DNA from: Methanotrichaceae archaeon | Lineage (GTDB): Archaea; Halobacteriota; Methanosarcinia; Methanotrichales; Methanotrichaceae | Assembly: GCA_963803145.1 (NCBI GenBank) | Contig: CAWDLW010000025.1 | Span: forward strand, 1-64,000 | Length of the DNA: 64,000 nt | Reading direction: 5' to 3' | Shown here: piece by piece, positions 3,840 through 19,307 of the stretch | How the letters are laid out: the number at the start of each line of letters is the position of its first letter | Numbering within the stretch: the stretch's first letter is position 1 | Translations under genes and position numbers: made by a program | Notes under the pieces: generated by a model | What the model was told of the DNA's origin: nothing | Database searches by the model: none | What the model saw: the letters and a program-made list of their open reading frames with translations, nothing else

Positions 3840-4081
3840 CAATTAGTTATACTAATAATCTATTCTATTCGTGGATTCTTATGGATAGAGGAAGTTCACT
3901 TTTTTACTCTTTTTTTTCTTTCCCAACCTCATTAAGCATTTATATAAGTATCCGAATCCCACCCTCGGCGTTTTCTTGCTAGTAAATGCTTATCTCTTAT
4001 AGGTATTATAATTGAAGACTTCTAAACCGTTACTAAACGAAATGCTTTTAATATAGATACTTCAAGTACGTACTTGAGATT

Positions 4082-4321
4082 ATGAGAAGAAGTAGGGGCG
4101 GGGTTATAGCTAAAATCTTAGAGGTCTGTCTAACTGGACCCAGCAAAACACGCGTAGTTTATGGCAGCAATTTGAACTTTAGGACAGTGGTCCCATATCT
4201 AGATTCTCTGATAGCGAATGGACATCTTGTCGTAACTGATGAGATGATGCCAAGATATAAGACCACAGATAAGGGAAAGGAGCTTCTAGCCATAATCAAA
4301 GAGGCTCATGAGTTCTTTTAG
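4082..4321 (+). CDS. Winged-helix DNA-binding protein (HTH_45/ArnR1-like)
   Basis: RRSR..I..IL...SKTRVVYGSNLNF....YL..L..NG....YKTTDKG signature. Confidence 0.85.
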   Translation: MRRSRGGVIAKILEVCLTGPSKTRVVYGSNLNFRTVVPYLDSLIANGHLVVTDEMMPRYKTTDKGKELLAIIKEAHEFF

Positions 4322-4814
4322 CAACATCTGGGGTGGGTGAATGGGGTCCACTTACCAATCCATTGCGGGCTTTCTGTTTCTTGCTATTATATTTCTTGTC
4401 ATACTATCCTTAATAGTGGAGCTGAATTTGGTTGAACCCATTTTGATAATAATATCTTTGATATCAATTACTTGGTTTATAAAGGGGATGACCTAACTCA
4501 GATGGATTGCTCTCACAATGGCCTCTAAGTTGATTCGTGGATTGCGTGCTTAGCGGCGTGCCCTCTTTTTCATGCCCCAATAGAGAGCTAGCAGACCAAT
4601 CACGACTAATTTAAATTTTATGATCTTCTTGATAAGTTTGAACATGGTCTATTCACCGGATCTCTATACAGTCTTAAAACTATAAAAAGATGTAGAAGGA
4701 TCGCAAGAGGTATCATGCCTTCCAGCTCCTCGCCTCCCTAGCCTATCCATCGGCCTCCAATTGATCTATATGCAAGTAAAAGTATAAATCTTAATAACTA
4801 TTAATAGTTGATTT

Positions 4815-4873
4815 GCGAAGGGCATATACTTCTAAAGCAATAGATCGTCCCTCCTAATATTTTTGCCCTTCGC
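4815..4873 (+). ncRNA. Putative sRNA hairpin A1
   Basis: GCGAAGGGCA-39 nt-TGCCCTTCGC; TATAAA at 4783. Confidence 0.55.
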
Positions 4874-5103
4874 CTCCCACCTTTTCTCCACCTCATCCTA
4901 GCCTATCCATTGATCTTCAAACCATCTTAGCCCGGGTCCTATCGGTTTTCCTATCTATCCATCCTGATAGGAGATCGTCGATCCTAGGGCATTATAGAAA
5001 ATAATTTTCTAGGTTTTATGAAATCGAGAGGCTTTAGATAGACATATCATTACTTCATATAGATGTGCCACTATATTTATTAGTTGTAAATACCCTCTAA
5101 ACC

Positions 5104-5152
5104 GGGTCGCAATCGCAAAATCATCGCATTCTAATCACCGCGATTGCGGCCC
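5104..5152 (+). ncRNA. Putative sRNA hairpin B1
   Basis: GGGTCGCAATCGC-23 nt-GCGATTGCGGCCC; TATATTTA upstream. Confidence 0.45.
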
Positions 5153-5279
5153 CTATCTCGATTCTCTAATAATGAATGGTCACATCGTTATAACTGATGA
5201 GAAAACCCGAAAATATCAGACCACAGATAGAGGAAAGGAACTTCTAGTCATGATTAAGGCGACTCATGAGTTTTTCTAA
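5151..5279 (+). pseudogene. 5'-truncated copy of the wHTH gene
   Basis: PYLDSLIMNGHIVITDEKTRKYQTTDRGKELLVMIKATHEFF* aligns with the C-terminal half of 4082-4321. Confidence 0.85.
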
Positions 5280-5378
5280 CCTTACTGTAATCGTCTTATG
5301 TGTACTTTCATAAGCTCTATCATGGTCAATACATATAAGACGTTGAACATTTTGATGGTTCGGCCTGCCAGCCCCATT

Positions 5379-5424
5379 AGTAGTGCCACATTGCATTTAT
5401 AATTCTCTTTGGTGTGGTACTACT
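5379..5424. repeat. 46-bp palindromic site, copy 1
   Basis: AGTAGTGCCACATT-N18-GGTGTGGTACTACT. Confidence 0.75.
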
Positions 5425-5460
5425 TTTTATGGGCTCTTACAACGGCCTCAAATCCAATGC

Positions 5461-5571
5461 TTATGACCTAAGTGCAACCCATAAAAAGAGGATGGCTATA
5501 CCTAGAAGCGCTATAACTATAATAACTATATCTGTTTTCGATTCAATGTCGAACCTATTCCGCAAATTCAT
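5461..5571 (-). CDS. 36-aa single-TM micropeptide
   Basis: MNLRNRFDIESKTDIVIIVIALLGIAILFLWVALRS*; GGAGCGGG purine tract upstream; below the ORF-track length cutoff. Confidence 0.55.
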   Translation of the reverse strand: MNLRNRFDIESKTDIVIIVIALLGIAILFLWVALRS

Positions 5572-5720
5572 GTGTCCCGCTCCCATAAATAGCGCCATTC
5601 TGATTTTAAATAGTTATTCATGAGAAATCCATAACATTGTTCTTGCAATGGCCTATAGGTTGAATCATGGATTGCAATAGTAGCCATCTAAATACTTCTT
5701 TATACAATGTGCCCGTTTCA

Positions 5721-5783
5721 AGCGAAGGGATGATCTATAGCCATCAGACATCTGCCATCTGGTCTTCTCTCGATCCCCTCGCT
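5721..5783 (+). ncRNA. Putative sRNA hairpin A2
   Basis: AGCGAAGGGAT-41 nt-ATCCCCTCGCT; TAAATA at 5689. Confidence 0.55.
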
Positions 5784-5974
5784 CCTCTTTACCTCGTGCA
5801 TTGATCGGCTAGCTAATAGCCTCCAAGCGATCTTCGTCTAGGTCCTATAATCCATCCTGCCGTGAGATCGTCGATCCTAGGGCTTTTTAAAAATTTATAA
5901 TTTGGCATCGATTAAATAATACCACTAATTTATAACTTGGCTCGATTATAATATATTGTTCCTCCTCAGCAATT

Positions 5975-6027
5975 GGGCCACGATCGACTAACATCCCTCA
6001 AAAGGCTTCATCATTTGATCGTGGCCC
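5975..6027 (+). ncRNA. Putative sRNA hairpin B2
   Basis: GGGCCACGATC-31 nt-GATCGTGGCCC; TTTATAA upstream and a CU-rich leader. Confidence 0.45.
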
Positions 6028-6122
6028 GGCCTGATTATTATTTCCAGAATTTCTACCCTGACTTGGCTCTGGCTTGCAATACCAGTTCTCTAAATATATC
6101 CTTTTACAATGCCGAGTTTCAT

Positions 6123-6174
6123 GCGAAGGGATATTTAGTCCATGGTCATCAACCATATTACCCCGTCCCTTCGC
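6123..6174 (+). ncRNA. Putative sRNA hairpin A3
   Basis: GCGAAGGGAT-32 nt-GTCCCTTCGC; TAAATA at 6091. Confidence 0.55.
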
Positions 6175-6324
6175 TTATCCCTCGTCCATGTCCTGCCCTT
6201 TTCTCCTTGCCGTCCTAGGCTACCCTTTCGGACTTCAAGCCATATGCGGCTACGTCCTGGGATAGTTGAATCCTAGATTCCAGTACTAGCTTCCTAAATA
6301 CTTCCTTCTACAATGTATTAGTTT

Positions 6325-6379
6325 CAAGCGACGGGATTCCCTATTATCCTGAGCAGCTTCTACCTTATCCCGTCGCTTG
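6325..6379 (+). ncRNA. Putative sRNA hairpin A4 (compensatory stem variant)
   Basis: CAAGCGACGGGAT-29 nt-ATCCCGTCGCTTG, a perfect 13-bp stem with an A:T to C:G covariation; TAAATA at 6295. Confidence 0.6.
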
Positions 6380-6527
6380 CTTAATCGATCTTCAGAAAAA
6401 TATCATGCTATGAGATCATCAATCTTTGGACAATATAAAATTTATATTTTAGTATCTATAATTTCGAACCACTAATTTATAAGTGTATTCAGCTATATTG
6501 TATAATGTAATTTCTCCTTCCACAATT

Positions 6528-6578
6528 GGGCCACGATCACTATCACCCCTTAGAGGCTTCATCACTTGATCGTGGCCC
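6528..6578 (+). ncRNA. Putative sRNA hairpin B3
   Basis: GGGCCACGATC-29 nt-GATCGTGGCCC. Confidence 0.45.
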
Positions 6579-6671
6579 GCCTGGTTATTATTTCCAGAAT
6601 TTTTACCATGACTTGGCTCTGGCTTGCAATACCAGTTCTCTAAATACTTCCTTTTACACTATACATGCTTC

Positions 6672-6739
6672 AAGCGAAGGGATGCTTGTTCAATAGACAG
6701 TTGACTCAGCTATAATCCTCCTGTCTCATCCTTTCGCTT
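6672..6739 (+). ncRNA. Putative sRNA hairpin A5
   Basis: AAGCGAAGGGATG-42 nt-CATCCTTTCGCTT (one G:U pair); TAAATA at 6641. Confidence 0.55.
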
Positions 6740-6811
6740 ACCAGATCGATGCTTATCAAGCGATATCTATACAAGAAAAACTATTTACAGCTTTAATTGT
6801 AATAAATGGTT

Positions 6812-6881
6812 GCGAAGGGATAATCTATTTTCCGATAGAGATACCCTCACAATTCACCATTGAGATAGTCTCTCCCTTCGC
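6812..6881 (+). ncRNA. Putative sRNA hairpin A6
   Basis: GCGAAGGGA-52 nt-TCCCTTCGC; TATTTA at 6782. Confidence 0.55.
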
Positions 6882-7139
6882 TTCCCCTTCACTCAATGAT
6901 TTATGGATTGCAAGAGGTGTCCTACCTTTTTCTCCTCTCCGTTCCAGACTATCTCGTGGCCTTCAAGCCACCTACAGGCAGTCCCCTTAGTATAATGTCA
7001 TGCCTTGAGATCCGGCCTTTAAAGGGCATTTTAAAAAATAATTTTCTAGGTTTTATGAAATTGAGAGGCTTTAAATAGACGAATCACTACTTTATATAGA
7101 TGTACCACTATATTTATTAGTTGTAAAACCCTCTAAGCC

Positions 7140-7188
7140 GGGCGGCAATCGCAAAACCATCGCATTCTAATCACCGCGATTGCGGCCC
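7140..7188 (+). ncRNA. Putative sRNA hairpin B4
   Basis: GGGCGGCAATCGC-23 nt-GCGATTGCGGCCC. Confidence 0.45.
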
Positions 7189-7314
7189 ATATCTTGATTC
7201 TCTAATAATAAATGGTTATATTATCAAAACTGATGAGAAAACGCGAAAAATAAGACTACAGATAAAGGCAAGGAACTTTTAGCCGTAATCAAGAAGGCTC
7301 ATGAGTTTTTCTAA
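7187..7314 (+). pseudogene. 5'-truncated, frameshifted wHTH copy
   Basis: PYLDSLIINGYIIKTDEKTRK / TTDKGKELLAVIKKAHEFF*. Confidence 0.8.
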
Positions 7315-7408
7315 CCCTAAGGTCTTATGTGTAATTCCATAAACGCTATGAGGATCAGTACATATAAGACGGTGAGCATATCGCAGGTTCAGCCTGCCAG
7401 CCCTCATT

Positions 7409-7454
7409 AGTAGTACCGCATTGCCTATTTGATTCTCCGTAATGTGGTACTACT
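7409..7454. repeat. 46-bp palindromic site, copy 2
   Basis: AGTAGTACCGCATT-N18-AATGTGGTACTACT. Confidence 0.75.
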
Positions 7455-7664
7455 TTTATGGGCTCTTGCAATGACCTCATCTGTATTAGGCGCATTAAAG
7501 TTTGAATGGGAGTAATCTTTAGATTATATATAGATTCGACTGAATAATATATGATAGATAATGGCAGTCAAATATTCTGTACGCGAGATTGTTGACGGGG
7601 ATTATGCTCGCAATCCCGCCATCCTTCTTACAAATCTATATCAATTATGAAGTCCTCAAAAGAC

Positions 7665-7841
7665 TTACTGCATTTCTGTTTTTATCTCTTTGATCAAATC
7701 TAATAAATACGTTCTGTCATCATCCCATCCATTACTCTTTAGAATGACCGCCAATTTATTATCGGTCAGCTCAGGGTTATCTTCTACCCATCTCTTGATT
7801 GCTTTCTTGTCATATGCTCTCTTATCCGTTATTTCTGGCAT
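7665..7841 (-). CDS. 58-aa small helical protein (possibly HTH-like)
   Basis: MPEITDKRAYDKKAIKRWVEDNPELTDNKLAVILKSNGWDDDRTYLLDLIKEIKTEMQ*; protein-like composition; divergent from hairpin A7. Confidence 0.55.
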   Translation of the reverse strand: MPEITDKRAYDKKAIKRWVEDNPELTDNKLAVILKSNGWDDDRTYLLDLIKEIKTEMQ

Positions 7842-7904
7842 TATCTTATCTTTGGCTCGTTAATCTAATAATCTATTTACTCTTGCAATTATTATATATT
7901 GATG

Positions 7905-7977
7905 GCGAAGGGATAATTGAGTCTCAGATAGAACCAAAGCGATATTTCCAATTTGATATAGTCCTCTATCCCTTCGC
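7905..7977 (+). ncRNA. Putative sRNA hairpin A7
   Basis: GCGAAGGGATA-51 nt-TATCCCTTCGC; TATTTA at 7874. Confidence 0.55.
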
Positions 7978-8308
7978 TTTTCCCTTCATGTATCTTGGCT
8001 CTTGCAATGGCCTATTCATCTCACATAGGATCGCAACATCAGGAGGATGTCCCTCTACCACGGGAGGAACATAAACTTACAATGGCCTGAGGTACCATAC
8101 CTTCCAGCTCCTCGCCTCCCTAGCCTATCCATCAGGCTTCAAGCCCTCTACAGGCAGTCCCTAGGATATGTCATGGCCTGAGATCGTCGATCCTGGGGCC
8201 TTATAGAAATTAATTTTCTTGGGTTTATGAAAATCCTTGAACTCTGCCTTTCTTTTTGTCTTCTAAACATGCACGAAACCTAAAAAAGCAAAAATAGGAG
8301 GGAAATCT

Positions 8309-8593
8309 TTACGTTTTAATTTTCTCTACTTCGTTGAGGAAGTAGAAATCAATTTTGATAACACCAGATTTCTTTATCGCTTTTTTTACATCCTCTGATT
8401 CAATAAACTTATGGGCATTTTCTAAGTTATCCCATTCATTCAAAATGGTGATATCATTAGGGTTGTCTGCATCTCGAAAGAGCATGCCCCCTTTCGCACC
8501 ACCACTAGCTTTCCGGGGAGCTGAGAGTTGGTCAAATACAGGTTTCCACTTCGCATAATCCTCAACTTTAACTCTAGCCAACGAATAGGGCAT
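8309..8593 (-). CDS. ABM/dimeric alpha-beta barrel 'cyclase'-like protein
   Basis: RVKVEDYAKWKPVFD...FRDADNPND...EWDNLENA..F pattern; AAGGAG SD. Confidence 0.7.
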   Translation of the reverse strand: MPYSLARVKVEDYAKWKPVFDQLSAPRKASGGAKGGMLFRDADNPNDITILNEWDNLENAHKFIESEDVKKAIKKSGVIKIDFYFLNEVEKIKT

Positions 8594-8740
8594 TATATTA
8601 TCTCCTTTAATCTATTATTGTAGGCATCGCAAGGATATCTAATTTTGGTTTTTTTTTCTAAAGTTGAATTTACGAATAGCTATGAATCTCCTATCATTTC
8701 CAGAGCAGCCACCATCCCTTTTTATTGATCTCTTCCTCGC

Positions 8741-8932
8741 CTAAATCAATGATACTATGCCTCTTGAGTCTATCCTGATCCGGCCTTCTCTCTCTAGGTC
8801 CTCAAGGATAGGATTAATCTCTTGCATCCTTAACCCAGTCCGCCGCCTCAGCTGACTTCGCTTCATCCTTCGGCCATTGTTGTTTAGTGTCCACAGGATT
8901 TTATCATGCGGGGTCTGAGAGGCATCTTTCAT
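8741..8932 (-). CDS. Small winged-helix protein
   Basis: KILWTL...MKRSQLRRRTGL..QEINPILEDLEREGRI pattern. Confidence 0.65.
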   Translation of the reverse strand: MKDASQTPHDKILWTLNNNGRRMKRSQLRRRTGLRMQEINPILEDLEREGRIRIDSRGIVSLI

Positions 8933-9017
8933 TTGTAGATCATGTGATTAACGCTTGCAGGATAAAAGGCCAAGGTGAGCACAGAGCGAAGGTAATAGAA
9001 TCCGCATTATCAGAGTC

Positions 9018-9197
9018 AGTAAAACACGTGTGGTTTATGGCAGCAATTTAAACTTTAAAACGGTGAATCCCTACCTAGATTCTTTAATGGCAAATGGTCA
9101 CATTGTCATAACTAATGAAAAAATGCCAAGATATAAGACTACGGATAAGGGAAAAGAGCTTCTAGCCGTGATCAGGAAGGTTAATGGATTTTTCTAA
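9018..9197 (+). pseudogene. Fourth wHTH copy lacking the N-terminal ~20 codons
   Basis: SKTRVVYGSNLNFKTVNPYLDSLMANGHIVITNEKMPRYKTTDKGKELLAVIRKVNGFF*; in-frame TGA at 8976. Confidence 0.8.
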
Positions 9198-9521
9198 CCT
9201 ATTTGGCGGATGCAAATAGCCGTTATTAAAAGGCATGATGCCTGCTGAAGTTGCAAGGATAGTTTGGTCTAATATCCCATGCTGTTTTGGGCGAATTCTT
9301 GACATATTTAATTGCATAAATTTATCGCTATTATCATACTTTAGGAAAATAAGTCAACGTGAACAATTGCGATCTACTGCTACTGAATAGCCAAAGTAGC
9401 CAAGGTACGTCTAGCTATGTTCCTACATTTTTAAGCCTTTTCTCGATTGAATAGATCTGAGAAAGCTGTAGGCACCCTTATTCAAATAAGTTTTTATAAC
9501 ATAACCATAAATGCTGCATTG

Positions 9522-11450
9522 ATGCCAAATGATAATAATGAGCCGATAATTACTAAGATAAAAAATCTAAAAGAAGAAATAGATACATGCAATGATATGA
9601 TTAATTGTCTAAGAGAAAGAAATCAAGATTCATCATCAGTAATATCAGCGCAAAATATGCTTAATGGAAGGCTTGCTTTTATCAGTGGAGAATTCAATAA
9701 TTCAAAAAAATGTTATGAAGATTCTATTTCCGGCCTACAAGATCTTAACCTATTTGAGGAAATGTCAGTAGTGGCTCTAGAAGCGGCAAAGGAGTTTTGG
9801 GACATAAAAGATATCGAGGCCGCAAAACAGTTTTCTGAGGATGCAGTCAATGGAATTAAATATTCATGGATGATTACATCATTACCAAATAAACTAAGTT
9901 TGCCAGAAACTGCAATAAGAGTTTACGATTTCTCCATAGGCCTATGTTACTCGATTAAGGAATATGACCAAGTATTTGAATATGTTCAGCGAGTTAAAGC
10001 GCATTGGCTTCTAGATATAATGGCTTTGCAGCATCTTGGGAAATCAGTTCCTTTTCGGCGGCTATTGGTGGGGAGAAAACTGGATGATCTACTAATAAAT
10101 GATAAATCTGAATTTACAGAACTATCTAGCGAACTGGATAGCCGATGGAAGAATTACCTTTCTGGACACCTTTTAGAGAAAGAACTTGAAAATATAGAGG
10201 AAAGGGTCTTAGAATCCTATTCTAAATATTCAAGACACTTTGATGGACCTATTGTGGCAATGGCATCGATACCCACTATAAAGGACATACAAAGACGACT
10301 GGACATCAATGAAGGCATATTAGAATATTTTGTACAGAAAGATGGCGTTTATATAATTGTAATCAAAAATAATGATTATGAGATTGAATTCAAATCTATT
10401 GATCCTAATATATTGAAAGAACGTATTCCTTTTATATACATAAATTTGATTCAAGCTGAGAGTAGAAGACAGGCTGAGAACAGGGCAAAGGAAACAAAAG
10501 ATATCGATAAATCGGAGACAATTAATGATTGGAAAAATTCTTATCCAAGCCCTGTAGAAGGCTTGAAATGGCTATATGATATTTTAATTGAGCCTGTCGA
10601 AGATAATATTAGAAATGTTAATAGACTTATAATTTGTCCACATTGGTTATTAAATATCGTTCCATTTGCAGCTTTGCTTTCCGCAAAAGACAACAAGTAT
10701 GTTGTAGAATCCAAGAGCATCACATACTCACCCAATGCTTCTATTTGGGCCAAGATGATGGATATCAAGAAAGAAAAAGCATCATCTAAAGAGACTATTG
10801 CTCTAGTTGTTGGTGTAGAACAAATGCATGTTTCAAAATGGTGGGATTCTGTTGGAAACTTCATTGGCAAATTAATTGGGAACGAAAATATATCTGATTT
10901 TGAAGGAGAAGCAGCGAGTATTGCCAAAGATCTCAACGCCATTCCACTTATAGGGCCATCCGCACAAAAAGATGCTATCCTCAATCGATTTCAATCGTCG
11001 GATATAATTCATTTTAGTTGCCATACAGTTGAACGCGCGAAACCCTTGGTTAATGGACTTCTCTTGGCGGATGGCGTATTGACCCTTGCGGAAATTCTGA
11101 TTAATGAAAAGATTGGTGGATCTAGTCCATCCATCATAACTCTAAGTGCTTGCAGAAGCGGTATCAATAGAGTGGAGCCCGGCGATAATATATGGGGCAT
11201 AGGGTATGGATTTCTTGCACGATGTGGCTGCCCTATACTCTCTTCACTTTGGCCAGTGGATGCTGAGGCTACGAGATTCATAATGGAAAGATTTTATAGA
11301 TATGGTATTATTAATTCTGATTGGTCAGATGCTTTGAAGAAAGCGCAAAATGAGCTAATGGTCTCCTTTAGCCGACTTGATAAAAAGGGAAGATCCATTA
11401 GCTTTAAGGATCCTTACTATTGGTCGGGTTTCTTCTTGCTCGGACCTTGA
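9522..11450 (+). CDS. CHAT (caspase-like) protease with helical/TPR-like N-terminus
   Basis: IICPHWLLNIVPFAAL, IIHFSCH (His), TLSACRSG (Cys), SLWPVDAEAT, PYYWSGF; AT-rich; start ATG 9522 (ORF open from 9447). Confidence 0.9.
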   Translation: MPNDNNEPIITKIKNLKEEIDTCNDMINCLRERNQDSSSVISAQNMLNGRLAFISGEFNNSKKCYEDSISGLQDLNLFEEMSVVALEAAKEFWDIKDIEAAKQFSEDAVNGIKYSWMITSLPNKLSLPETAIRVYDFSIGLCYSIKEYDQVFEYVQRVKAHWLLDIMALQHLGKSVPFRRLLVGRKLDDLLINDKSEFTELSSELDSRWKNYLSGHLLEKELENIEERVLESYSKYSRHFDGPIVAMASIPTIKDIQRRLDINEGILEYFVQKDGVYIIVIKNNDYEIEFKSIDPNILKERIPFIYINLIQAESRRQAENRAKETKDIDKSETINDWKNSYPSPVEGLKWLYDILIEPVEDNIRNVNRLIICPHWLLNIVPFAALLSAKDNKYVVESKSITYSPNASIWAKMMDIKKEKASSKETIALVVGVEQMHVSKWWDSVGNFIGKLIGNENISDFEGEAASIAKDLNAIPLIGPSAQKDAILNRFQSSDIIHFSCHTVERAKPLVNGLLLADGVLTLAEILINEKIGGSSPSIITLSACRSGINRVEPGDNIWGIGYGFLARCGCPILSSLWPVDAEATRFIMERFYRYGIINSDWSDALKKAQNELMVSFSRLDKKGRSISFKDPYYWSGFFLLGP

Positions 11451-11459
11451 TAATTATTA

Positions 11460-11900
11460 TTACACCTTTCTCCCGATAATAATTGGAACGAATAACGTAT
11501 ATAATGCCAATATTACTGCAGCTTGATAAGGCTTATACCAAGCGAAATTGCTGAAAGGCCCTCCTAGAGCAAATACCCATAGGATAAAAGCTATCGTCGC
11601 CACAATTATTTGTGTATAGGCATGAGGTTTGCCTGGCTCGTCAGTAACGCGCCACATATAAAGGGGAGTTGCTATTGTCAATATTAAAAAAATTCCAAAG
11701 AAAAAGGTATTTGACGTTTCTCCAGCCGCCTTTATGATGCTATCAATTGCAACATATACAGAAACTACCTCAGTGGGAATATATTTTGCAATTCTTTCCG
11801 AAGTAGCATCTGGTTTTTCTTCTGCCTGTCCGCCTGGGACTATTCCCTTTGTTTTTCTTGATTCCGCTATATCACTTTCTGTTATAACACGACGAGACAT
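11460..11900 (-). CDS. 4-TM membrane protein (RIAKYIPTEVV family)
   Basis: GAGGAGG SD before ATG 11900; hydrophilic N-terminal tail followed by four hydrophobic segments. Confidence 0.75.
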   Translation of the reverse strand: MSRRVITESDIAESRKTKGIVPGGQAEEKPDATSERIAKYIPTEVVSVYVAIDSIIKAAGETSNTFFFGIFLILTIATPLYMWRVTDEPGKPHAYTQIIVATIAFILWVFALGGPFSNFAWYKPYQAAVILALYTLFVPIIIGRKV

Positions 11901-12419
11901 TATAAGACCCTCCTCGTCCAGTAATTGCGAATCATAAGAATTTTCAACTATAAAATTGCATCTGTTTTTCTCCTTTAAATTGTAATCAATAATCAAATAT
12001 TTATCTCGTATCCTGGCAGACACCTATCTGGCTTGGAGATACGGCCGCAATAGGCATTCCTTCTCCAAGCGGAAAGAAAAATATAAGTCTCAATGCTAAA
12101 TAGTAATTAATGTGCAAGAGGTTGTTCCTTATAAATGGAACAAAACCATTTATGCATTCCTATTCGCCCTTTGCACCATCCTCTATTCTTTAGGTTCGCT
12201 ATTTGTATGTGTTTAGCTATACCAGACTCGGTTGTTAGATGCGGGTTTCAGTTCCTAACGGATTAATATATATTAATCTGTATTTAAATGAAATCGATAT
12301 CATTGGCGTCTTGGCCCTCAAAACAACCTTTAGCAATTAGCAGCAGGAGAAGTCGTAAAAATGGCTCATGGATACTGATTATAGTGAGCTAAACACATAC
12401 CGCTATTTCATAAGGAGAT

Positions 12420-12803
12420 TTAGGATGAACTCCTCAGGATATCAGCCTTCAACTTCTTTGCTTTCTCTATCGCCTCTGCATGGCTAACCTTCTTAACGCT
12501 GCCTAGATGCTTTGTGACTGTCTTATCCCCCACTCGCCATGAGCAGAGCCAACGATCATAGGTTTTAGGCCCTTTCTTGGTTTGCTTCACAATGGGAGCC
12601 TGCCTAACCGTGAGGTCCTCAAGCCTCGCGTGTGTGGCCAATGCGAAAGCTGTCTCACCTAGCTCCTTAGCTCTGTGAGCCTTCACCGCAGCCAAAGCCC
12701 TTGTCTCCTCAATGGCTGCTAAAGTTTGGGCTTCTCCTTCCAGCTTCTTGGCCTTCTTCCTCATCTCGCGGGCCTTTGCCCTGCTGGCAGTGTCATGAAC
12801 CAT
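12420..12803 (-). CDS. Coiled-coil protein with Arm/AP2-like DNA-binding domain (mobile-element associated)
   Basis: RWLCSWRVGDKTVTKHLGSVKKVSHAEAIEKAKKL resembles integrase Arm-type domains. Confidence 0.55.
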   Translation of the reverse strand: MVHDTASRAKAREMRKKAKKLEGEAQTLAAIEETRALAAVKAHRAKELGETAFALATHARLEDLTVRQAPIVKQTKKGPKTYDRWLCSWRVGDKTVTKHLGSVKKVSHAEAIEKAKKLKADILRSSS

Positions 12804-12955
12804 ATGCTCTCCAAATCATTTTTATCCAAGTCGGCTCTATCCAGTCTTGTCCATATCTGGCGGGCAGTTTTGCCCTAGATCCTGCATAGTAGTTCTCGCC
12901 TTCTGGCCCGCCTTTGCGATATCCACAGGCTCATGGTGTGTTTCTAACGATAGAT

Positions 12956-13001
12956 AGTAGTACCACATTACATATGTAGTTATTTTTAATGTGGTACAAC
13001 T
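12956..13001. repeat. 46-bp palindromic site, copy 3
   Basis: AGTAGTACCACATT-N18-AATGTGGTACAACT. Confidence 0.75.
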
Positions 13002-13136
13002 AAGGGCGGCGAGGGTGGATAGTCGGGTGTGAAATCGATATGCTCTAGATAGTGAAGGCCCAAAGGATAGGCTCTATTCGCGGAGAGGTCTATAAGCGTC
13101 GTGAAGAGGATTATAAGGTTTATTAGGATGCCTGGG

Positions 13137-13209
13137 TGTTCAGGCTATTGAGGATTTGTTTAGGTTGTTTAGCTTGTTCAGGCTAACATGGGTTTTGTTC
13201 GGGTTGTTC
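13137..13209. repeat. Iteron-like 9-mer repeats TTGTTYAGG
   Basis: tgttcaggc, ttgtttagg, ttgtttagc, ttgttcagg, ttgttcggg, ttgttc. Confidence 0.5.
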
Positions 13210-13292
13210 TACCTGAGATCACCTCTTCGGCCAGTCAATACAGATCGTAAATTAGGCGTCTATACATCGATCGATGGCCTAGATCATCAGAT

Positions 13293-15508
13293 TCATTTGA
13301 TGGGCCATTCTGGTATGGCTTTATCTATCTCTTTCATCAAGCGAATGGTCTCCTTCAAGGCTACAACGACCTTCTGGTAATGAGTAAGATCATCATAGGA
13401 TAATTGTCTGCCTCTTCGATCTTTAAGCCATTTCTCACAGACCTGATAGCCTCCTACATAGAAATTCCAAACCTCCAGAGGGACGCCATCGAAGTATTGT
13501 ATTTGGTTTATTTTGATGCAGCCATTTTTGTTATCATCATGAACGATGAACTTTGGGTATCCTTTCTCTACCTGGTTATTTCCTGGCATTGGATAGTGAG
13601 TAATGAATTTGGAGACTTCAGGGGAGTCTAACACGTGCAGCGAAACTAGTTCCTTTCCAAGTCCGCATAGTTTACGGAAGAGATCAATACTTGATGTCAG
13701 CGGCACTCTAGGGAAGTCATTCTTCAGGAACTCAGCATAGCGCTGCCTGTAGGTTGGCGAGTGGAATATGGAGTAGATGTAGTCGAAAACGTCCTCTGGC
13801 CCGAAGGTAGTTGTCAAGTCGCCGTGACCATCTGAGATGAACTTGAGGTTGAGGCATGATTCAATTGCCGAAACAAAATCGTGGCTTAGATTGGGGGTTC
13901 GGCCATCTTTGCCGGGAGGCCAAAATGAGTTCTGCAATGTGTTTTGGCGTGAGGACTTCTGTTCAATGGATGGATAAAGATAAAGTGGGAAAAGATTGTT
14001 GATGTCGTATGCAGCACATGATTTATGTCCACATATTAGAGCTGTAGCTAGAATATCCCATTGATCTCGTGTTTGTCGAGTGGCTATCAGACCTAAATTC
14101 CCTTTCGGCACCATATGTTGCATTACTTCTTGTCTTGGAAGTTCTACAACATCTTGACTGTGATAATAATATCTAAAATCAAAAGGCCGATAAAGACATT
14201 TCGTGAAATGGCTCTGCCATTCTGAATTCTCTGATAAGGAGCGCCTTTTTTGATTTAATTTCCAATCACGTGTATCTGAAAGGTTGTATTTTTCCCGTAT
14301 TTTATCATCTAAAATATTTAAGTTTCTGAAGTCCTCAATTCGAGTTCGAAGTGATGCTTGATCGCAATCCAACACAAAGTGGTCGCGATGCGTTTTTACT
14401 CCTGTAGAATTAATTGGCATTATCTCTGTAATTTTCCAATTTCTTTCATACTCTGGCTGCGAAGTGGTATCTTGAGGCACAAAAAAATAGAATGGAGGAC
14501 GTGGTTCTATGATTGTCCATGGAGTGTTACTGACACCATTTACGAGTAACTTTTCATACTTGTTTTCCCTACTTCCCCATAGGTCTGCATGATAAATTGT
14601 TGCTTGACCCTCCTTATTCGGCTCTTTTACAAAGATTCCGATTGCTACACCCTGCTGGATGTCGAAAATATTCTCATCTTTTGAACCATCGGGAGAGCGC
14701 TCTTTCTTTTTGCTATTTCCATGTAAATTTAGAATATAAATTTGTGTAAAATTAGCGATTAAAGATTTGCGCATCTCTCTGAATGTAGGATTATCAAGAT
14801 AACCGTTATTGGTGATGAATGCCAAAATGCCTGCACCAGTATGCGCAATTCTCCACTGTCCCCAACGGATAAATTTAACATAATCATCCAATAAGAGTTT
14901 CGGATTATGTTCTTTTATGTCATCATGTGGATAATAGTCTTTCCGAATAAGATCAATAATCCATTTACCTTTATTCGCCGAATTTGCAGAATATGGTGGA
15001 TTGCCTAAAACTACCATTATCGGGTAATCACGCTTGACTACTGAAGCTGAACGTGCCTCTTTTCCTATGACCTCATAACCCCACAAGGATTTCCATGGAT
15101 TATCAGATTCCTCAAGCGTGTTTGTAAGGTAGATACCCAATCGCTCATCACTGGCAAAGTCATAAGCCCAATCTTTTTGTAAATCCAAGGGCAAATCCTG
15201 ACCAGCTAGTTGCATTCCGAGCTTGAAATGTGTTATAGCATAAGGTGCCATAAGCAATTCAAACCCAAAAATACGTGTCAACAAGTAACGTTTAACGTAT
15301 TCAGACCATAGACCGGCATTTCCATATTTCATGAATTCGCTTCGGATCAAATCAACTATCGCATAGAGAAAAGTTCCTGTTCCTGTAGCAGGGTCAAGCA
15401 TAAGAACCTTGGGGCGTATTTCATGGACGATTCTTGTGGGAAATGCATTCTTTTCTGGCTCTCCTCGAAAATCGGTAAAAAACGTTTCTCTGTCGAATTC
15501 AATGGTAC
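13293..15508 (-). pseudogene. Type ISP/IIG-like N6-adenine methyltransferase-specificity enzyme, N-terminally truncated by IS630
   Basis: LDPATGTGTFL (motif I), GNPPYS (motif IV), FITNNGYLDNPTF, YRPFD, GGYQVCEKWLKDR (ISP C-terminal domain); reading frame ends at the IS end. Confidence 0.85.
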
Positions 15509-15510
15509 TA

Positions 15511-16693
15511 GTGCAGCATAACACAAGTTTTTTATCCTAGCAAGTCCTTATGATCGCTAATCATGTCGAGGAAAACAATATTCGTCGTAAAATTGACAGA
15601 TGAGGATCGGGAATATCTGAACCAGTTTATTCGCCATGGAAAGGCATCTGTAAGAAGCGTGACTCGTGCCAGGACACTGCTCATGGCAGACGAAGGTTAC
15701 TCCAATAAAGATATCGTAAAGATTCTAAAAATAACCAGACCTACGGTTAACAGTGCAAGGAAAAGGTACTGCCAGGAAGGTTTGGACTCTGCAATAAACG
15801 ATAAACCAAGAAGCGGCGCACCTCCAAAGATAGATGGAAGGATTGAGACACAAGTTACCCTTCTTGCCTGTTCGAAACCACCGGAAGGCAAATCGACCTG
15901 GACTCTGAAGCTTTTAGCCGATAGGCTCGTGGAAATGGAGGTAATAGAATCCATATCTACCATGACCGTTCAGAGGATCTTAAAAAAAGCGAGACCAAGC
16001 CTTGGCAGAAGGTTAGATGGTGTATTGGCGAGATAACAAGCGATTACATCATGCATATGGAAGATGTGCTGGATCAATATGAGCAACCCTATGATCCTAA
16101 GCATCCTTTAATCTGCATGGATGAGATGCCATGCCAATTGATAGACAACGTTTTAGTTCCTATTCCTCCTAAACCTGGAAAATCACAAAAAGTCGATTTT
16201 GAATATCGCCGTAATGGTACATGCTGTGTTTTCATCGCCTTTGATCCACATGCCCGTTGGAGAACAATATCTGTTGAAGAACACCGGACGAAAATTGATT
16301 ATGCCCATTTTATGAAAGGGCTTTCCCAGAAATATCCTGAGGCAGAATACCTTAAAGTTGTCCAGGATAACCTTAACACTCACTCATCTGGTTCATTTTA
16401 TGAAGCATTCTCGCCTGAGGAGGCGTTCCAGCTTGCCAAGAAGTTTGAGTTCCATTTTACTCCAAAGAAGGGTAGCTGGCTTAACATGGCTGAGATTGAG
16501 TTCTCGGCTCTTTCAAGGCAATGCTTGAACCGACGAATTGGCGATATCAAAACTTTAGCCAAGGAAGCGAAAGCTTGGGAACAGGATCGGAACAGGGCTA
16601 AAGTAGCTATTCGATGGAAGTTCACCAAAGCCAATGCAAGAGAGAAGTTCTGTAGGCATTACCTTAAGATAAAGAATTAATGTTATGATGTAC
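15511..16693 (+). mobile_element. IS630-family element (1183 bp)
   Basis: TIRs GTGCAGCATAACA / TGTTATGATGTAC, flanked by TA within CTAG; ORFs 15563-16036 and 16051-16680 joined by an A7 -1 frameshift at 15982. Confidence 0.92.
15563..16680 (+). CDS. IS630 transposase (programmed -1 frameshift)
   Basis: HTH ORF-A; shifted frame KKSETKPWQKVRWCI; DDE motifs CMDE, VQDNLNTH, SWLNMAEIEFS. Confidence 0.9.
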
Positions 16694-16699
16694 TAGTTA

Positions 16700-16729
16700 G
16701 AGCTGGGATTGGCCCTGTTATCCCAGCTC
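16700..16729 (-). terminator. Hairpin downstream of the disrupted secreted-protein gene
   Basis: GAGCTGGGAT-N10-ATCCCAGCTC, 8 bp past the stop codon. Confidence 0.45.
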
Positions 16730-16737
16730 CATTTTCC

Positions 16738-19307
16738 CTACTTCTTTGGACTGAACTTTATAGCTCGATCATACACGATCTCTGAGTAGGATGGCCCAGT
16801 TTTTGTAGCCTTTTCCAAGTAGCTCCTCCACCAGATATAAATCGGCTGATTCGGATGTATGCCGTAGCTCCCTGGACCATAGGGAACCTTAAAGCAATGC
16901 GGATCGCCATTACAATTTCTGGCAACCTTATAGACATAAAGGTATTTCGCGTCTGGATTATTGGGGAGGTATTCCTCAGCGGTTCCGTTGAAATCAGCAT
17001 CATTGATTGCTCCAATACCATTCCATATGTCCGCTCCACAAACGGCGAAGTTCTCGTATGTAGCCTTTCCAGTGGCTACATGGTTAACCCCATAGACGAT
17101 TATGAAATCATTGGTATCGTTGCCTAAAGTAATTGCTGGATGATATACAAACGGATAGCTCAGCGAGAGATTAGGGAAAGAAGGTGTCGGCGAAGAGATC
17201 GCTTGGTTTACAGTCCATAGATAGCACGCATCGTTGTCAGGGATTAAGGCGTCAATTCCTCTCTGAATAGCATCAATCCCCACTGGAACCGGTATACTAG
17301 TTGGAAGCTCTGTGGCTTTCAATCCACTGTATTTTTTAAGAATCGCCTCCCTCAGTTGTTCGAGGTCATTTGTAAGGTCAAACTCTGTTTTTCCCGTTCC
17401 ACGTACTCTTATATCTGGATAACTATAGTTAATCATTGAGCTTATTGCCCTATAGATACATTTAATAATTAATGCGTGAAAATACATAGGCATGGGTAGA
17501 AAACCTATAATAATTAGGCATATATCAAAGATAGACCTTGATAAATTATATAAAAAAGAGACTGATCTAAGGATTAAGGAACGGTTATTGGCAATAATAC
17601 ATTTATATGAAGGGAAAAACGTATATGAGGTAGCTGATATTTTAAAAAGGGGCGAGAGGACAATAAAATATTGGTTAAGCAGATGGAATAATCATGGCTA
17701 TAATGGATTGACACCAAAGAATAGAAATGGCAAAAAGCCAAAGATGTCTCTTGATGAATGGGATAGAGTTATTAAAGAAATTGAAGACAAAGGAATGACG
17801 ATAAAAGACGTATTAAAATATGTAAGGGATACAAGAGGTATAGATTTTTCATATAAATATGGCTGGCGAATTTTAAGAGTAGTGAAAAAAGTTAAGTATG
17901 GGAAACCATACATCAGAAATGAAAAGAGGCCTGCAGATGCAGAAAGTTTTTTAAAAAAGGATAAAATCAGTGCTGACCACAGTTACTGATCCTGTTATAG
18001 GATTTCTTGATGAAAGCTCTTTACAACAGCGCCCTAATACACGTAGAGTCTTAAACACTCATTTAATAAATTATAAACCTGGAAAGGTTAGATCAAGAAC
18101 TATTTTTGGATTTATAGCATTAAATGGCAATGATGAGGTTATGGTTTCCAACTCCTCTAAGAAGGAAGCGTTGATGGCATTTGCTCAAAATATAAGAAAT
18201 AATAATATTATGAGGCCAATTTGTATACTTTTAGATAATGCTAGAATTCATTTGGCCAAGAAATTTAGAAAACTAGCTGAGGAAATCGATATTCACTTAA
18301 TTTATAATATCCCCTATTCACCAGATTTGAATCCTATAGAATTCGGTTGGAAGGATTTCAAAAGAGAGATCGCCAAATACACTGATTTCGATGAAGCTAT
18401 TATAGCTAGCCAAGATTGCGCTTTAGAAATATTTTATTCCAAAAAGGATGGATATTCAAAGTCCTGGGTGGAGCGATTTCTTAGTGCAAAAAGCTAGGAG
18501 ATTAACTATATATGGGTCAAGCTTTGTGGATTCGTTGGGAGTTATGCGGAAAACAGTTGCAGGTGTATTATTTATGTAATTATCTCCAGCTTGCTTATCT
18601 TTGAATAAAGCTGGACGGATTATTATAGCAAATGTATCGGAGTTATTCTCCAGGCCCATGTTCAACATAGCCGAGGGAAACATCTGGGTGTTAAAAATGT
18701 CGCCCGAATACCCTGCAGATAAGGCAGCAGCGCGGATGCGTTGATCAATGCCTCTGTCGGCTGTGGCGACTATCACAGTAGTTTGGTTGAATGGATTTCC
18801 AGCCAACCCATTAGGAGTCCTTTCAGTATTGATGACCAAGTTGTTTACTGTATCTGCTATGTTGGCAAAGACCCATCGGGTTTCATTTCCATATGTTCTA
18901 TCCACTATATAATGATCGTAACTAAAGTATCTACATTCTGGCGGTGTTCTTCCCACGAAAACAACAGCTTCATCTGGATCAAGATTCCAAAATGAAGATA
19001 AGTTCGATCTCAATCCGATCGCTCTAGCTATCTTAGAAAACAGTTCAGGTACCTTAGACCCAGGTGCCGGTGGAACAAAATATGTCAAATATTTCGTGGC
19101 AGGATTGTTTCCATAGCATGAAGGTAAGACTCCTAAGTCATGTAATTTGATCGCATCAAAAAAACCTAGCCCACCTTTCTGTACAGTAAATCCATCCTTT
19201 TCTAAGGCTTTTTGAAAAGCCTTAACGTCACCTGTTGTCGCATTCTGTCCAAGGCCAATTCCTATTAACATGGCGAATAAAATTGTTAATATTATATATA
19301 TTTTCAT
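16738..19307 (-). pseudogene. Secreted protein (~494 aa) split by IS630
   Basis: Removing 17426-18508 plus one TA restores ...KLDPYSYPDIRVRGTG...; signal peptide at 19307. Confidence 0.88.
17426..18508 (+). mobile_element. IS630-family element (1083 bp), second type
   Basis: TATAGTTAATC / GATTAACTATA ends with TA duplication; ORFs 17492-17989 and 17970-18497 with a T6A6 slippery site; FLDE, LDNARIH, PYSPDLNPIE. Confidence 0.92.

Follow-up and report, generated by a model that had tools for sequence, protein, structure and literature searches.

The window analysed here is a stretch of 64,000 nucleotides from a Methanotrichaceae archaeon (contig CAWDLW010000025.1). It contains a tandem cluster of seven plus-strand hairpins that have in common the stem GCGAAGGG/CCCTTCGC and enclose differing, pyrimidine-rich loops of 33-57 nt. 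Hairpins A1 (4815..4873), A6 (6812..6881) and A7 (7905..7977) belong to type II units, and A2 (5722..5782), A3 (6123..6174), A4 (6328..6376) and A5 (6674..6737) to type I units. The core stem has one A.C mismatch in A2, one G.U in A5 and a compensated change, GCGACGGG/CCCGTCGC, in A4; the A1 loop holds GATCGTCCCTCCTAAT, which resembles the 3' end of 16S rRNA. Hairpins are spaced 138-1093 nt apart, and the intervals are occupied by promoter-like modules and gene remnants. All seven are genuine hairpins. Each of them folds, at z-scores between -1.5 and -6.3, and the window has 13 occurrences of the arm motif GCGAMGGG where 2.28 would be expected, a count reached by none of 100 shuffles.

Upstream of the cluster lies an intact gene for an HTH_45 winged-helix protein of 79 aa (4082..4321, plus strand; Pfam E=2.3e-17), and HTH_45 remnants are found at about 5100-5270, about 7125-7313 and 9009-9185. 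In the window's own genome, to which this linkage applies, an HTH_45 match lies within about 1 kb of 6 of the 15 hairpin loci, against about 0.3 expected, the genome holding 35 HTH_45 matches in all. The minus strand carries a 45-aa ORF with one hydrophobic helix (5461..5598), divergent from A2, and a copy of this ORF stands beside another unit (C11:18418). The units adjoin IS630-type transposase genes and a Type ISP restriction-enzyme gene in a variable region; in a second genome, G002, transposase genes lie near units too.

Each hairpin is preceded by one of two kinds of module. The type II module of A1 (4741..4814, plus strand) consists of a CAAGCGAT-like box followed by a BRE/TATA-like box, which precedes the hairpin by about 24 nt, a layout repeated upstream of A6 (6741-6811) and A7 (7835-7904). 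In an alignment of seven copies, the spacing from box to hairpin is constant to within about 1 nt. Using nhmmer, we located ten copies of this module in the genome, whose tRNA-Leu promoter box the type II box closely resembles. The type I module of A2 (5649..5721, plus strand) comprises a TTGCAAT pair, a CTAAATAC box and then GTTTCAA, and is the same upstream of A3 (6051-6122), A4 (6254-6327) and A5 (6603-6673); it has seven genome copies by nhmmer and is kept in another genus. In G002, the CTAAATAC box sits 24-33 nt upstream of a pstS start. BRE/TATA-like boxes are found 24-27 nt upstream of every hairpin and on one side only; as expected of a trans-acting anti-Shine-Dalgarno (anti-SD) sRNA, each unit appears from its sequence to have its own promoter at the right distance.

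Downstream, A1 is followed by a pyrimidine-rich body (4874..4970, plus strand) with equivalents after A6 (6882-7009) and A7 (7978-8179, with an insertion); in two copies of the body compared by reading, the longest ORFs lie in different frames. Of the seven units, A1, A2, A6 and A7 continue to a palindromic terminator-like module, present at 4971..5023, 5855-5898, 7010-7060 and 8180-8232. The genome has at least 14 copies of this module, some of them behind protein genes, and it is conserved in 4 of 16 genera. Given the BRE/TATA-like boxes upstream and the terminator-like module, the units look like plus-strand small RNA genes, and because the boxes keep a fixed distance upstream, the plus strand is the likelier transcribed strand. 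Sense loops are more than half C and U in all 17 promoter-oriented units. Stem transitions read on the CU-rich strand amount to 8 G.U and 6 A.C cells, which does not favour the plus strand; both strands fold, the antisense RNA hairpin being the more stable in 12 of 17 units.

About 20 copies of the family to which the hairpins belong are present in this genome, nine of them exact hairpins, with none in a reversed control. Of the 105 genomes of the order, 17 have exact-arm hairpins; all carriers are Methanotrichaceae, they represent 6 of 16 genera, and the control never gave more than one match in a genome. Among 185,579 species genomes, type I units gave six matches, five of them in Methanotrichaceae MAGs and the sixth a single bacterial one. 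A search of the whole window against Rfam gave no match at the gathering score, and over 3900-9400 with E up to 5 it gave just two chance-level eukaryotic matches; blastn of 4000-9300 against phage and plasmid collections returned none. The family is restricted to relatives of Methanothrix.

In the core stem of 49 members, 373 of 392 pair cells have the consensus and four are compensated on both sides, against a mean of 0.91 when the arms were re-dealt (10 of 2000 re-deals reached four), a compensated count biased by a filter that let in hits with two deviations solely where pairing was intact at all eight positions. The arm sequence itself is invariant, beyond pairing alone, while loops drift or get replaced. 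Stems are perfect over 8-12 bp, and no extrahelical bases were seen. Loops are not unique one by one, as A5, A2, A1 and A4 each have a homologous loop elsewhere. The A5 loop equals that of C8:535036, whose promoter is of type II, over 38 of 38 nt; the A2 loop has homologues at C17:21600 and in three copies in genome G009; and an A4-homologous unit in G002 has a loop identical at 26 of 33 positions, counted by eye. At C9:8318 the loops are near-identical in two sister species, indicating inheritance at an orthologous locus. G002 has a flanking gene about 95% identical at the A7 locus, but with the promoter and hairpin part replaced. In our view this is a new, lineage-specific family whose members are probably sRNA genes, with small HTH_45 genes linked to it.

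A sequence-only reading of the cluster had quoted seven strings as evidence that the loops are antisense to ribosome-binding and start regions, and all seven are found as reverse complements of the loops. The SD-like part of the loops exceeds chance. For 17 promoter-oriented loops, pairing with AGGAGGUGAU averaged -9.5 kcal/mol on the sense strand versus -4.7 kcal/mol on the antisense (Wilcoxon p=0.00035), and 6 of the 16 non-identical loops contain CCTCC, a motif of the 16S 3' tail, where 1.56 would be expected; none of 1000 dinucleotide shuffles reached six, and GGAGG occurs in none of the 16. General pyrimidine richness accounts for much of the SD-pairing effect, and no more than 2 of the 17 loops score better than mononucleotide shuffles of themselves at p<0.05. 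Across the family, where paralogy raises every motif count, CCTCC is present in 18 of 50 members, and about 60% of loops lack it, among them an eight-copy subfamily of G002. The SD-like part had also been placed always at the 3' end of the loop, which describes the window correctly and does not extend to the family: the relative position of CCTCC in the 18 loops that bear it runs from 0.17 to 0.88, with five in the 5' fifth. As expected of a trans-acting anti-SD sRNA, an anti-SD word lies in the unpaired loop above chance, and anti-SD display by the loops is plausible.

The same reading had suggested that each loop may also cover a start codon and thereby silence a different mRNA. The anti-start part proved to be at chance level. 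An SD-like word of at least 4 nt is present in 13 of the 17 loops. In four of these, ATG, GTG or TTG stands 4-11 nt downstream of that word, against 5.6 expected, and in one the codon is ATG, against 2.3 expected. By the motifs originally quoted, the starts in the window are ATG in A2 and A3, GTG in A6, ATT or ATA in A1, A5 and A7, and CTG in A4. In ungapped scoring, 14 loops were compared with 3,511 roughly defined start regions (-25..+20), taken without proper gene calls; loop means equalled shuffled-loop means and top scores were not above the shuffles. The observed maximum was reached by 5 of 20 shuffles for A1, 1 for A2, 2 for A3, 0 for A4, 4 for A5, 9 for A6 and 18 for A7. By this crude test in the archaeon's own genome, the loops thus show no enrichment at start codons over shuffled loops, and there the guide idea fails on the criterion that the sequence-only reading had set for it. 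Similarly, antisense matches of 13 loops to the whole genome in blastn-short were at chance level and at most 15 nt long, paralogues aside. For 18-mers from A2 and C17 there were no matches within two mismatches, a long complement being absent from the genome, and a 22-mer from the G009 loop, allowed up to three mismatches in four genomes, found paralogous hairpins and one sequence common to G009 and G010. Gene-specific guides are unsupported.

Staphylococcus RNAIII, the Rsa RNAs and sRNAs of Methanosarcina mazei act in trans and block ribosome binding through C-rich or anti-SD loops. The units described here resemble these RNAs in their predicted own promoter, terminator-like end and unpaired, pyrimidine-rich SD-pairing loop, but differ from them in being multi-copy, in joining one invariant stem to diverse loops and in being confined to Methanotrichaceae. 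Unlike in a trans-acting anti-SD sRNA, extended start-region complementarity to particular mRNAs was not found here.

Our preferred reading, which we hold tentatively as a possibility short of an even case, is that the units are plus-strand ncRNA genes whose SD-pairing loops hinder ribosome binding. An archaeal BRE/TATA promoter would start the transcript at the base of the invariant 8-12 bp stem (GCGAAGGG/CCCUUCGC) or immediately upstream of it. The stem would present a pyrimidine-rich loop of 33-57 nt with little structure of its own, and the transcripts of A1, A2, A6 and A7 would continue via the CU-rich body into the palindromic, T-rich terminator-like module. The CCUCC(U) of about a third to half of the loops, the same word as in the 3' tail of the organism's own 16S rRNA, would pair with AGGAGG-type Shine-Dalgarno sequences and so hinder ribosome binding, and the invariant stem may protect the 5' end, serve proteins as a handle, or do both. 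This explanation does not include guiding to particular genes by way of an anti-start segment. Transcription and its strand, pairing with mRNA and repression are all things that we infer.

The units might instead be small RNA genes whose loops are not guides, the 5' stem-loop being an element for stability, processing or protein binding and the CCUCCU loops mimics or decoys of the 16S tail that might, for instance, soak up SD sequences generally or divert a factor recognising that tail. The constancy of the arm against drifting or replaced loops agrees with this, as does the lack of specific targets in the genome-wide blastn-short search and the start-region scoring. The base after CCTCC is T in 12 of 18 cases, like the 16S tail (p=0.004), and A1 (CCTCCTAAT), C8:86013 (CCTCCTAATG) and C42:83863 (CTCCTAATG) match the 16S 3' end (..CACCTCCTAATG) beyond the pentamer, although these three loops represent two independent lineages only and the motif is in just 18 of 50 loops; we find such a role somewhat unlikely. 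It is also doubtful that the inverted repeat acts as DNA, whether as a palindromic repeat whose perfection is maintained by template switching or as an HTH_45 binding or cruciform site, with the SD-like words a by-product of strand composition. The near balance of G.U and A.C (8 versus 6), the folding of both strands, the invariance of the arm beyond pairing, the linked HTH_45 genes and the position in a variable region beside IS630-type transposase and Type ISP restriction-enzyme genes would suit a DNA element. However, an arm spacing of 33-57 bp fits a hairpin rather than an operator with two half-sites, the promoter-like boxes stand at a fixed distance on a single side, and CCTCC is enriched over dinucleotide composition. 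Interiors, moreover, are unconserved, unlike those of MITEs, and sister species keep copies at the same loci.

That the minus strand is the functional one, its loops being ribosome-binding sites (RBSs) with mini-ORF starts or parts of type I toxin-antitoxin-like pairs with hydrophobic ORFs, we consider highly improbable. The ATG in the A3 loop does open a 52-aa minus-strand ORF, C17:203276 also opens a long one, and the 45-aa hydrophobic-helix ORF is conserved and divergent from both A2 and C11:18418. Nevertheless, loop ORFs are short (4 codons in A2, 33 in C17:21600) or not shared between paralogues: no minus-strand ORF of at least 50 aa is listed for A5, a paralogue of A3, the six-frame list holds no ORF of at least 50 aa common to paralogous copies of the region, and in our own reading of the sequence A3 and C17:21600 cross the arm in different frames. 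Neither the 52-aa nor the 45-aa product matches a Pfam family, canonical starts follow the SD-like word no more often than chance predicts, and in pairing with the 45-aa ORF's 5' region random windows were at least as good as the A2 and C11 loops in fractions of 0.68 and 0.29. On these chance-level duplex energies and the short or unshared loop ORFs we rejected a cis-antisense or type I toxin-antitoxin RNA. IS10 RNA-OUT, plasmid copy-control RNAs and type I antitoxin RNAs are stem-loops antisense to an RBS and start and encoded opposite their target; the hairpins are like them in having a loop that can be read as antisense to an RBS and start region, but no conserved ORF starts in the loops. 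There is very little chance, too, that the hairpins are recombination or transposition sites such as integron attC-like sites, REP/REPIN sequences or MITE ends. Archaeal integrons have been reported, and as in attC arrays seven hairpins share one orientation, a conserved stem base and a variable top; the hairpin part has been replaced between sister species within flanks about 95% identical, and transposase genes lie nearby in G002 and the window. Yet the window ORFs scanned included no integrase, some 'cassettes' span only 138-400 nt and hold no ORF, the perfect stems lack extrahelical bases, and the repeated unit includes the promoter module. We rejected attC, whose core consensus we take to differ from the arm word, the spacings being accounted for by promoter modules and gene remnants. 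The hairpins share with REP/REPIN sequences and MITEs a palindromic make-up, a scattered intergenic distribution and copy numbers in the tens per genome, but their interiors vary and copies are stable at orthologous loci; both were rejected, as loops differ between copies and no shared transposase was found among the neighbours of 13 loci. CRISPR was rejected as well, since the CRISPR-like arrays of the genome carry repeats unrelated to the arms. Distinctly unlikely, finally, is a lineage-specific display scaffold, an invariant stem with exchangeable loops that copy the 16S tail within variable flanks. A dedicated partner, for which the linked HTH_45 proteins are candidates, would read the stem, and new loops would be swapped in, cassette-like, between close species.

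Relatives of Methanothrix are the main acetate-using methane producers. Full-text searches turned up no work on their regulatory RNAs among the listings and abstract openings, and these RNAs are essentially uncharted. One fixed stem with many loops, often bearing an anti-SD word and linked to HTH_45 genes, provides concrete candidates that bear on translational control in archaea with Shine-Dalgarno initiation. If the repeat acts as DNA, it would be a new, HTH_45-associated palindromic repeat; if it is a display scaffold, a methanogen would possess programmable translation silencers or ribosome-tail decoys, possibly directed against mobile elements.

The arm word of the hairpins also occurs in a genome of another family, G317, in 52 near-identical copies of a repeat that resembles a true repeat element.

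The 4815-7977 stretch holds seven hairpins, all on a single strand (+), with arms GCGAAGGG(AT) and (AT)CCCTTCGC: A1 (4815-4873), A2 (5722-5782), A3 (6123-6174), A4 (6328-6376), A5 (6674-6737), A6 (6812-6881) and A7 (7905-7977). A4 has the arms GCGACGGG/CCCGTCGC, and the 3' arms of A2 and A5 deviate at one position each. Across the 64-kb window we counted 13 copies of the arm word where 2.28 are expected, and 0 of 100 shuffles gave as many. All seven hairpins adopt the proposed fold; from A1 to A7 the z-scores are -3.4, -1.5, -5.4, -6.3, -4.1, -3.5 and -3.0. Every string quoted in the sequence-only reading, which took the loops for possible guides antisense to the Shine-Dalgarno (SD) sequences and start codons of different mRNAs, is present in the reverse-complemented loop sequences. 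The hairpins and their anti-SD-like words are real.

By their upstream modules, the hairpins fall into type I (A2-A5) and type II (A1, A6, A7) units. Type I units carry a CTAAATAC box 26-27 nt ahead of the hairpin, then AATGTG and GTTTCAA, and are often preceded by a TTGCAAT word pair. At 4506-4545 and 5636-5675, type I boxes are preceded by paired TTGCAAT/ATTGCAA words, a possible regulator-binding operator. The type I module is kept in another genus, and in G002, a sister species, the box stands 24-33 nt ahead of the pstS gene start, a position consistent with a TATA box of the same orientation. Type II hairpins are preceded by a CAAGCGAT-like box and a stretch rich in purines, then by an AACTATTTAC-type box that ends ~24 nt ahead of the hairpin, at a spacing constant in the alignment, and closely resembles the box preceding a tRNA-Leu gene in the same genome. 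Type II hairpins lead into a pyrimidine-rich body of ~100-200 nt and then a palindromic T-rich module, present in the window at 4971-5023, 5855-5898, 7010-7060 and 8180-8232. The genome has 14 or more copies of this module, some behind protein genes and between convergent ORFs, and it is kept in 4 of 16 genera; it is probably a shared two-way terminator. With promoter and terminator assigned by similarity only, the A1-A7 region reads as seven tandem small genes on the + strand. A second hairpin family (5975-6027 and 6528-6578; arms GGGCCACGATC/GATCGTGGCCC, loop ~26 nt) has one copy upstream of each of the type I units A3 and A5.

To gauge the extent of the family, we searched the 4.13-Mb genome of the window and its relatives. 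Exact hairpins numbered 9 against 0 for a reversed control pattern; a looser regular expression gave 50 matches against 24 for its control, so about half of these are noise. Profiles of the regions preceding the hairpins recovered 7 type I and 10 type II units in this genome. Within the order, 17 of 105 genomes and 6 of 16 genera have hairpins with exact arms; no genome has more than 1 control match. Among 401 sampled genomes of the phylum, matches outside the family were single and sporadic except in G317, a genome of another family in which 52 near-identical ~54-nt copies of a different repeat end in the arm word GCGAAGGG/CCCTTCGC; this is apparently a genuine repeat element, dispersed or in tandem. 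An exact search of 185,579 species genomes with the type I flank returned six loci, five in Methanotrichaceae/Methanothrix metagenome-assembled genomes and a lone bacterial one. Rfam holds no family matching the hairpins, and phage and plasmid collections gave no match. Four species of genus g13 (loci L015, L016, L018 and L020) have a same-arm hairpin after an AT-rich box, with a conserved loop bearing CACCT on its 5' side and CCCTCC after the stem.

Stem conservation was assessed in 49 non-redundant members, drawn from this genome and from loci fetched from relatives, after leaving out nine rows that were truncated, duplicated or probably coding. The consensus pair is present in 373 of the 392 core pair cells. 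Four cells (in A4, C22:9932 on another contig of the same genome, and the relatives' loci L008:1694 and L059:16797) are changed on both sides with pairing kept, a number favored by our filter, which admitted two-deviation matches only if all eight positions pair. When 3' arms were re-dealt, the mean was 0.91 compensated pairs, and 10 of 2000 re-deals reached 4. On the pyrimidine-rich strand we counted 8 G.U and 6 A.C cells (A.C being G.U on the opposite strand) and 1 other mismatch; because the G.U and A.C counts are near-equal, the stem does not tell whether either strand is RNA, or which one. In 12 of 17 units the antisense hairpin RNA has the more stable predicted fold, as expected of a purine-rich strand; this does not decide between the strands.

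A serious alternative is a palindrome acting as DNA, bound by the winged-helix proteins linked to it. An intact HTH_45 (winged-helix family) gene of 79 aa lies at 4082-4321 (+), with remnants at three further places, and by coordinate comparison an HTH_45 match (35 in the genome) lies within ~1 kb at 6 of 15 hairpin loci, against roughly 0.3 expected. Part of this linkage is owed to duplication of composite segments, and the G002 hairpins are located between ordinary genes. The window cluster adjoins what appears to be a variable or defence-like region (9447-18497), with a CHAT-domain gene, a gene for Type ISP restriction-modification and two pairs of IS630-type transposase genes. Two HTH_45 remnants contain an inverted repeat CGCAATCGC/GCGATTGCG (5108-5148 and ~7146-7188) at which the intact gene differs, and a conserved long hairpin (7399-7464 and ~5372-5435; 24-nt arms, 79% complementary) lies behind the HTH_45 remnants. 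A 63-aa winged-helix ORF at 8741-8932 (-) has weak z-alpha and DUF7343 matches; ORFs similar to it by eye are convergent with the terminator module at several loci and lie beside hairpins of another genome, G009.

Loop composition bears on the RNA readings. We took 17 units oriented from the upstream modules, without reference to the loops; all 17 sense loops (+ strand, promoter direction) are pyrimidine-rich. The 16S gene of this genome has the 3' end ..GGATCACCTCCTAATG, and pairing with AGGAGGUGAU averages -9.5 kcal/mol for sense loops versus -4.7 for antisense loops (p=0.00035). Just 2 of the 17 loops reach p<0.05 against mononucleotide shuffles of their own sequence, so much of the SD-pairing effect is composition. 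The CCTCC word itself is enriched above dinucleotide expectation: it occurs in 6 of 16 non-identical loops versus 1.56 expected, with 0 of 1000 dinucleotide shuffles reaching 6, and GGAGG occurs in none. In a wider set of 50 hairpins, oriented by pyrimidine content and hence partly circular as to strand, 18 have CCTCC, followed in 12 by T as in the 16S tail (p=0.004). Likeness to the 16S end extends past the pentamer in A1, C8:86013 and C42:83863; an eight-copy G002 subfamily is without a CCTCC-type word. The reading we favor, tentatively, is a new Methanotrichaceae-specific small RNA gene family in which an invariant stem displays pyrimidine-rich, often anti-SD loops; because we infer its transcription and strand, we regard this as possible rather than probable. 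A decoy or stability role for the hairpins is a further serious alternative.

The remaining parts of the silencing-guide proposal, anti-start codons and a distinct target for each loop, are not supported. Thirteen of 17 antisense loops contain an SD-like word (4 nt or longer); among these 13, 4 have ATG, GTG or TTG 4-11 nt further on versus 5.6 expected (ATG alone, 1 versus 2.3). Nor is the SD-like part at the 3' end of the loop throughout the family: in the 18 loops with CCTCC, its relative position ranges from 0.17 to 0.88. Genes were called crudely by keeping the longest ORFs that did not overlap (minimum 100 codons) and picking each start by SD score, which gave 3,511 starts. The -25..+20 windows around these were then compared with 14 loops for ungapped complementarity. 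Within the limits of this crude scoring, which short seeds would escape, mean scores were the same as for shuffled loops, with no start-region excess. Only A4 and C17:203276 had a best match above all 20 shuffles, the latter matching an ORF called on the strand opposite the hairpin; for A1-A7, 5, 1, 2, 0, 4, 9 and 18 shuffles reached the observed maximum. To the extent that this scoring reaches, such an outcome is one that the sequence-only reading had itself named as refuting its guide proposal. A blastn-short search of 13 loops against the genome returned paralogues and chance matches of at most 15 nt, 18-mers from A2 and C17 had no second site at up to 2 mismatches, and a 22-mer from a G009 loop found, at up to 3 mismatches, only paralogous hairpins and one sequence common to G009 and G010.

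We also considered the minus strand. The ATG in the A3 loop starts a 52-aa minus-strand ORF of no Pfam family, and our ORF list holds no comparable ORF for A5, a paralogue of A3; loop ORFs are 4 codons in A2 and 33 in C17:21600. A 45-aa ORF with one hydrophobic helix (5461-5598, -; no Pfam family) is divergent from A2, and a copy with ~92% identical DNA is divergent from C11:18418. Because loop ORFs are short or unshared and loops pair with the leader of the 45-aa ORF at chance level, a type I toxin-antitoxin system is not supported. Another ORF with a hydrophobic helix (51 aa, 4341-4496, +; no Pfam family) lies beside hairpin units.

The loops are not each unique, nor is their variation simple hypervariability. 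A5 and C8:535036 have 38 of 38 nt in common, the latter with the other promoter type. The A2 loop is homologous to C17:21600 and three G009 copies, and the A1 loop to C42:83863. An A4-homologous unit in G002 has a loop identical at 26 of 33 positions, counted by eye, and C9:8318 is almost unchanged in two sister species. At the A7 locus, the neighbouring 58-aa gene and terminator module are ~95% identical to G002 and the promoter-hairpin part does not align, so that this part seems to have been replaced relative to G002.
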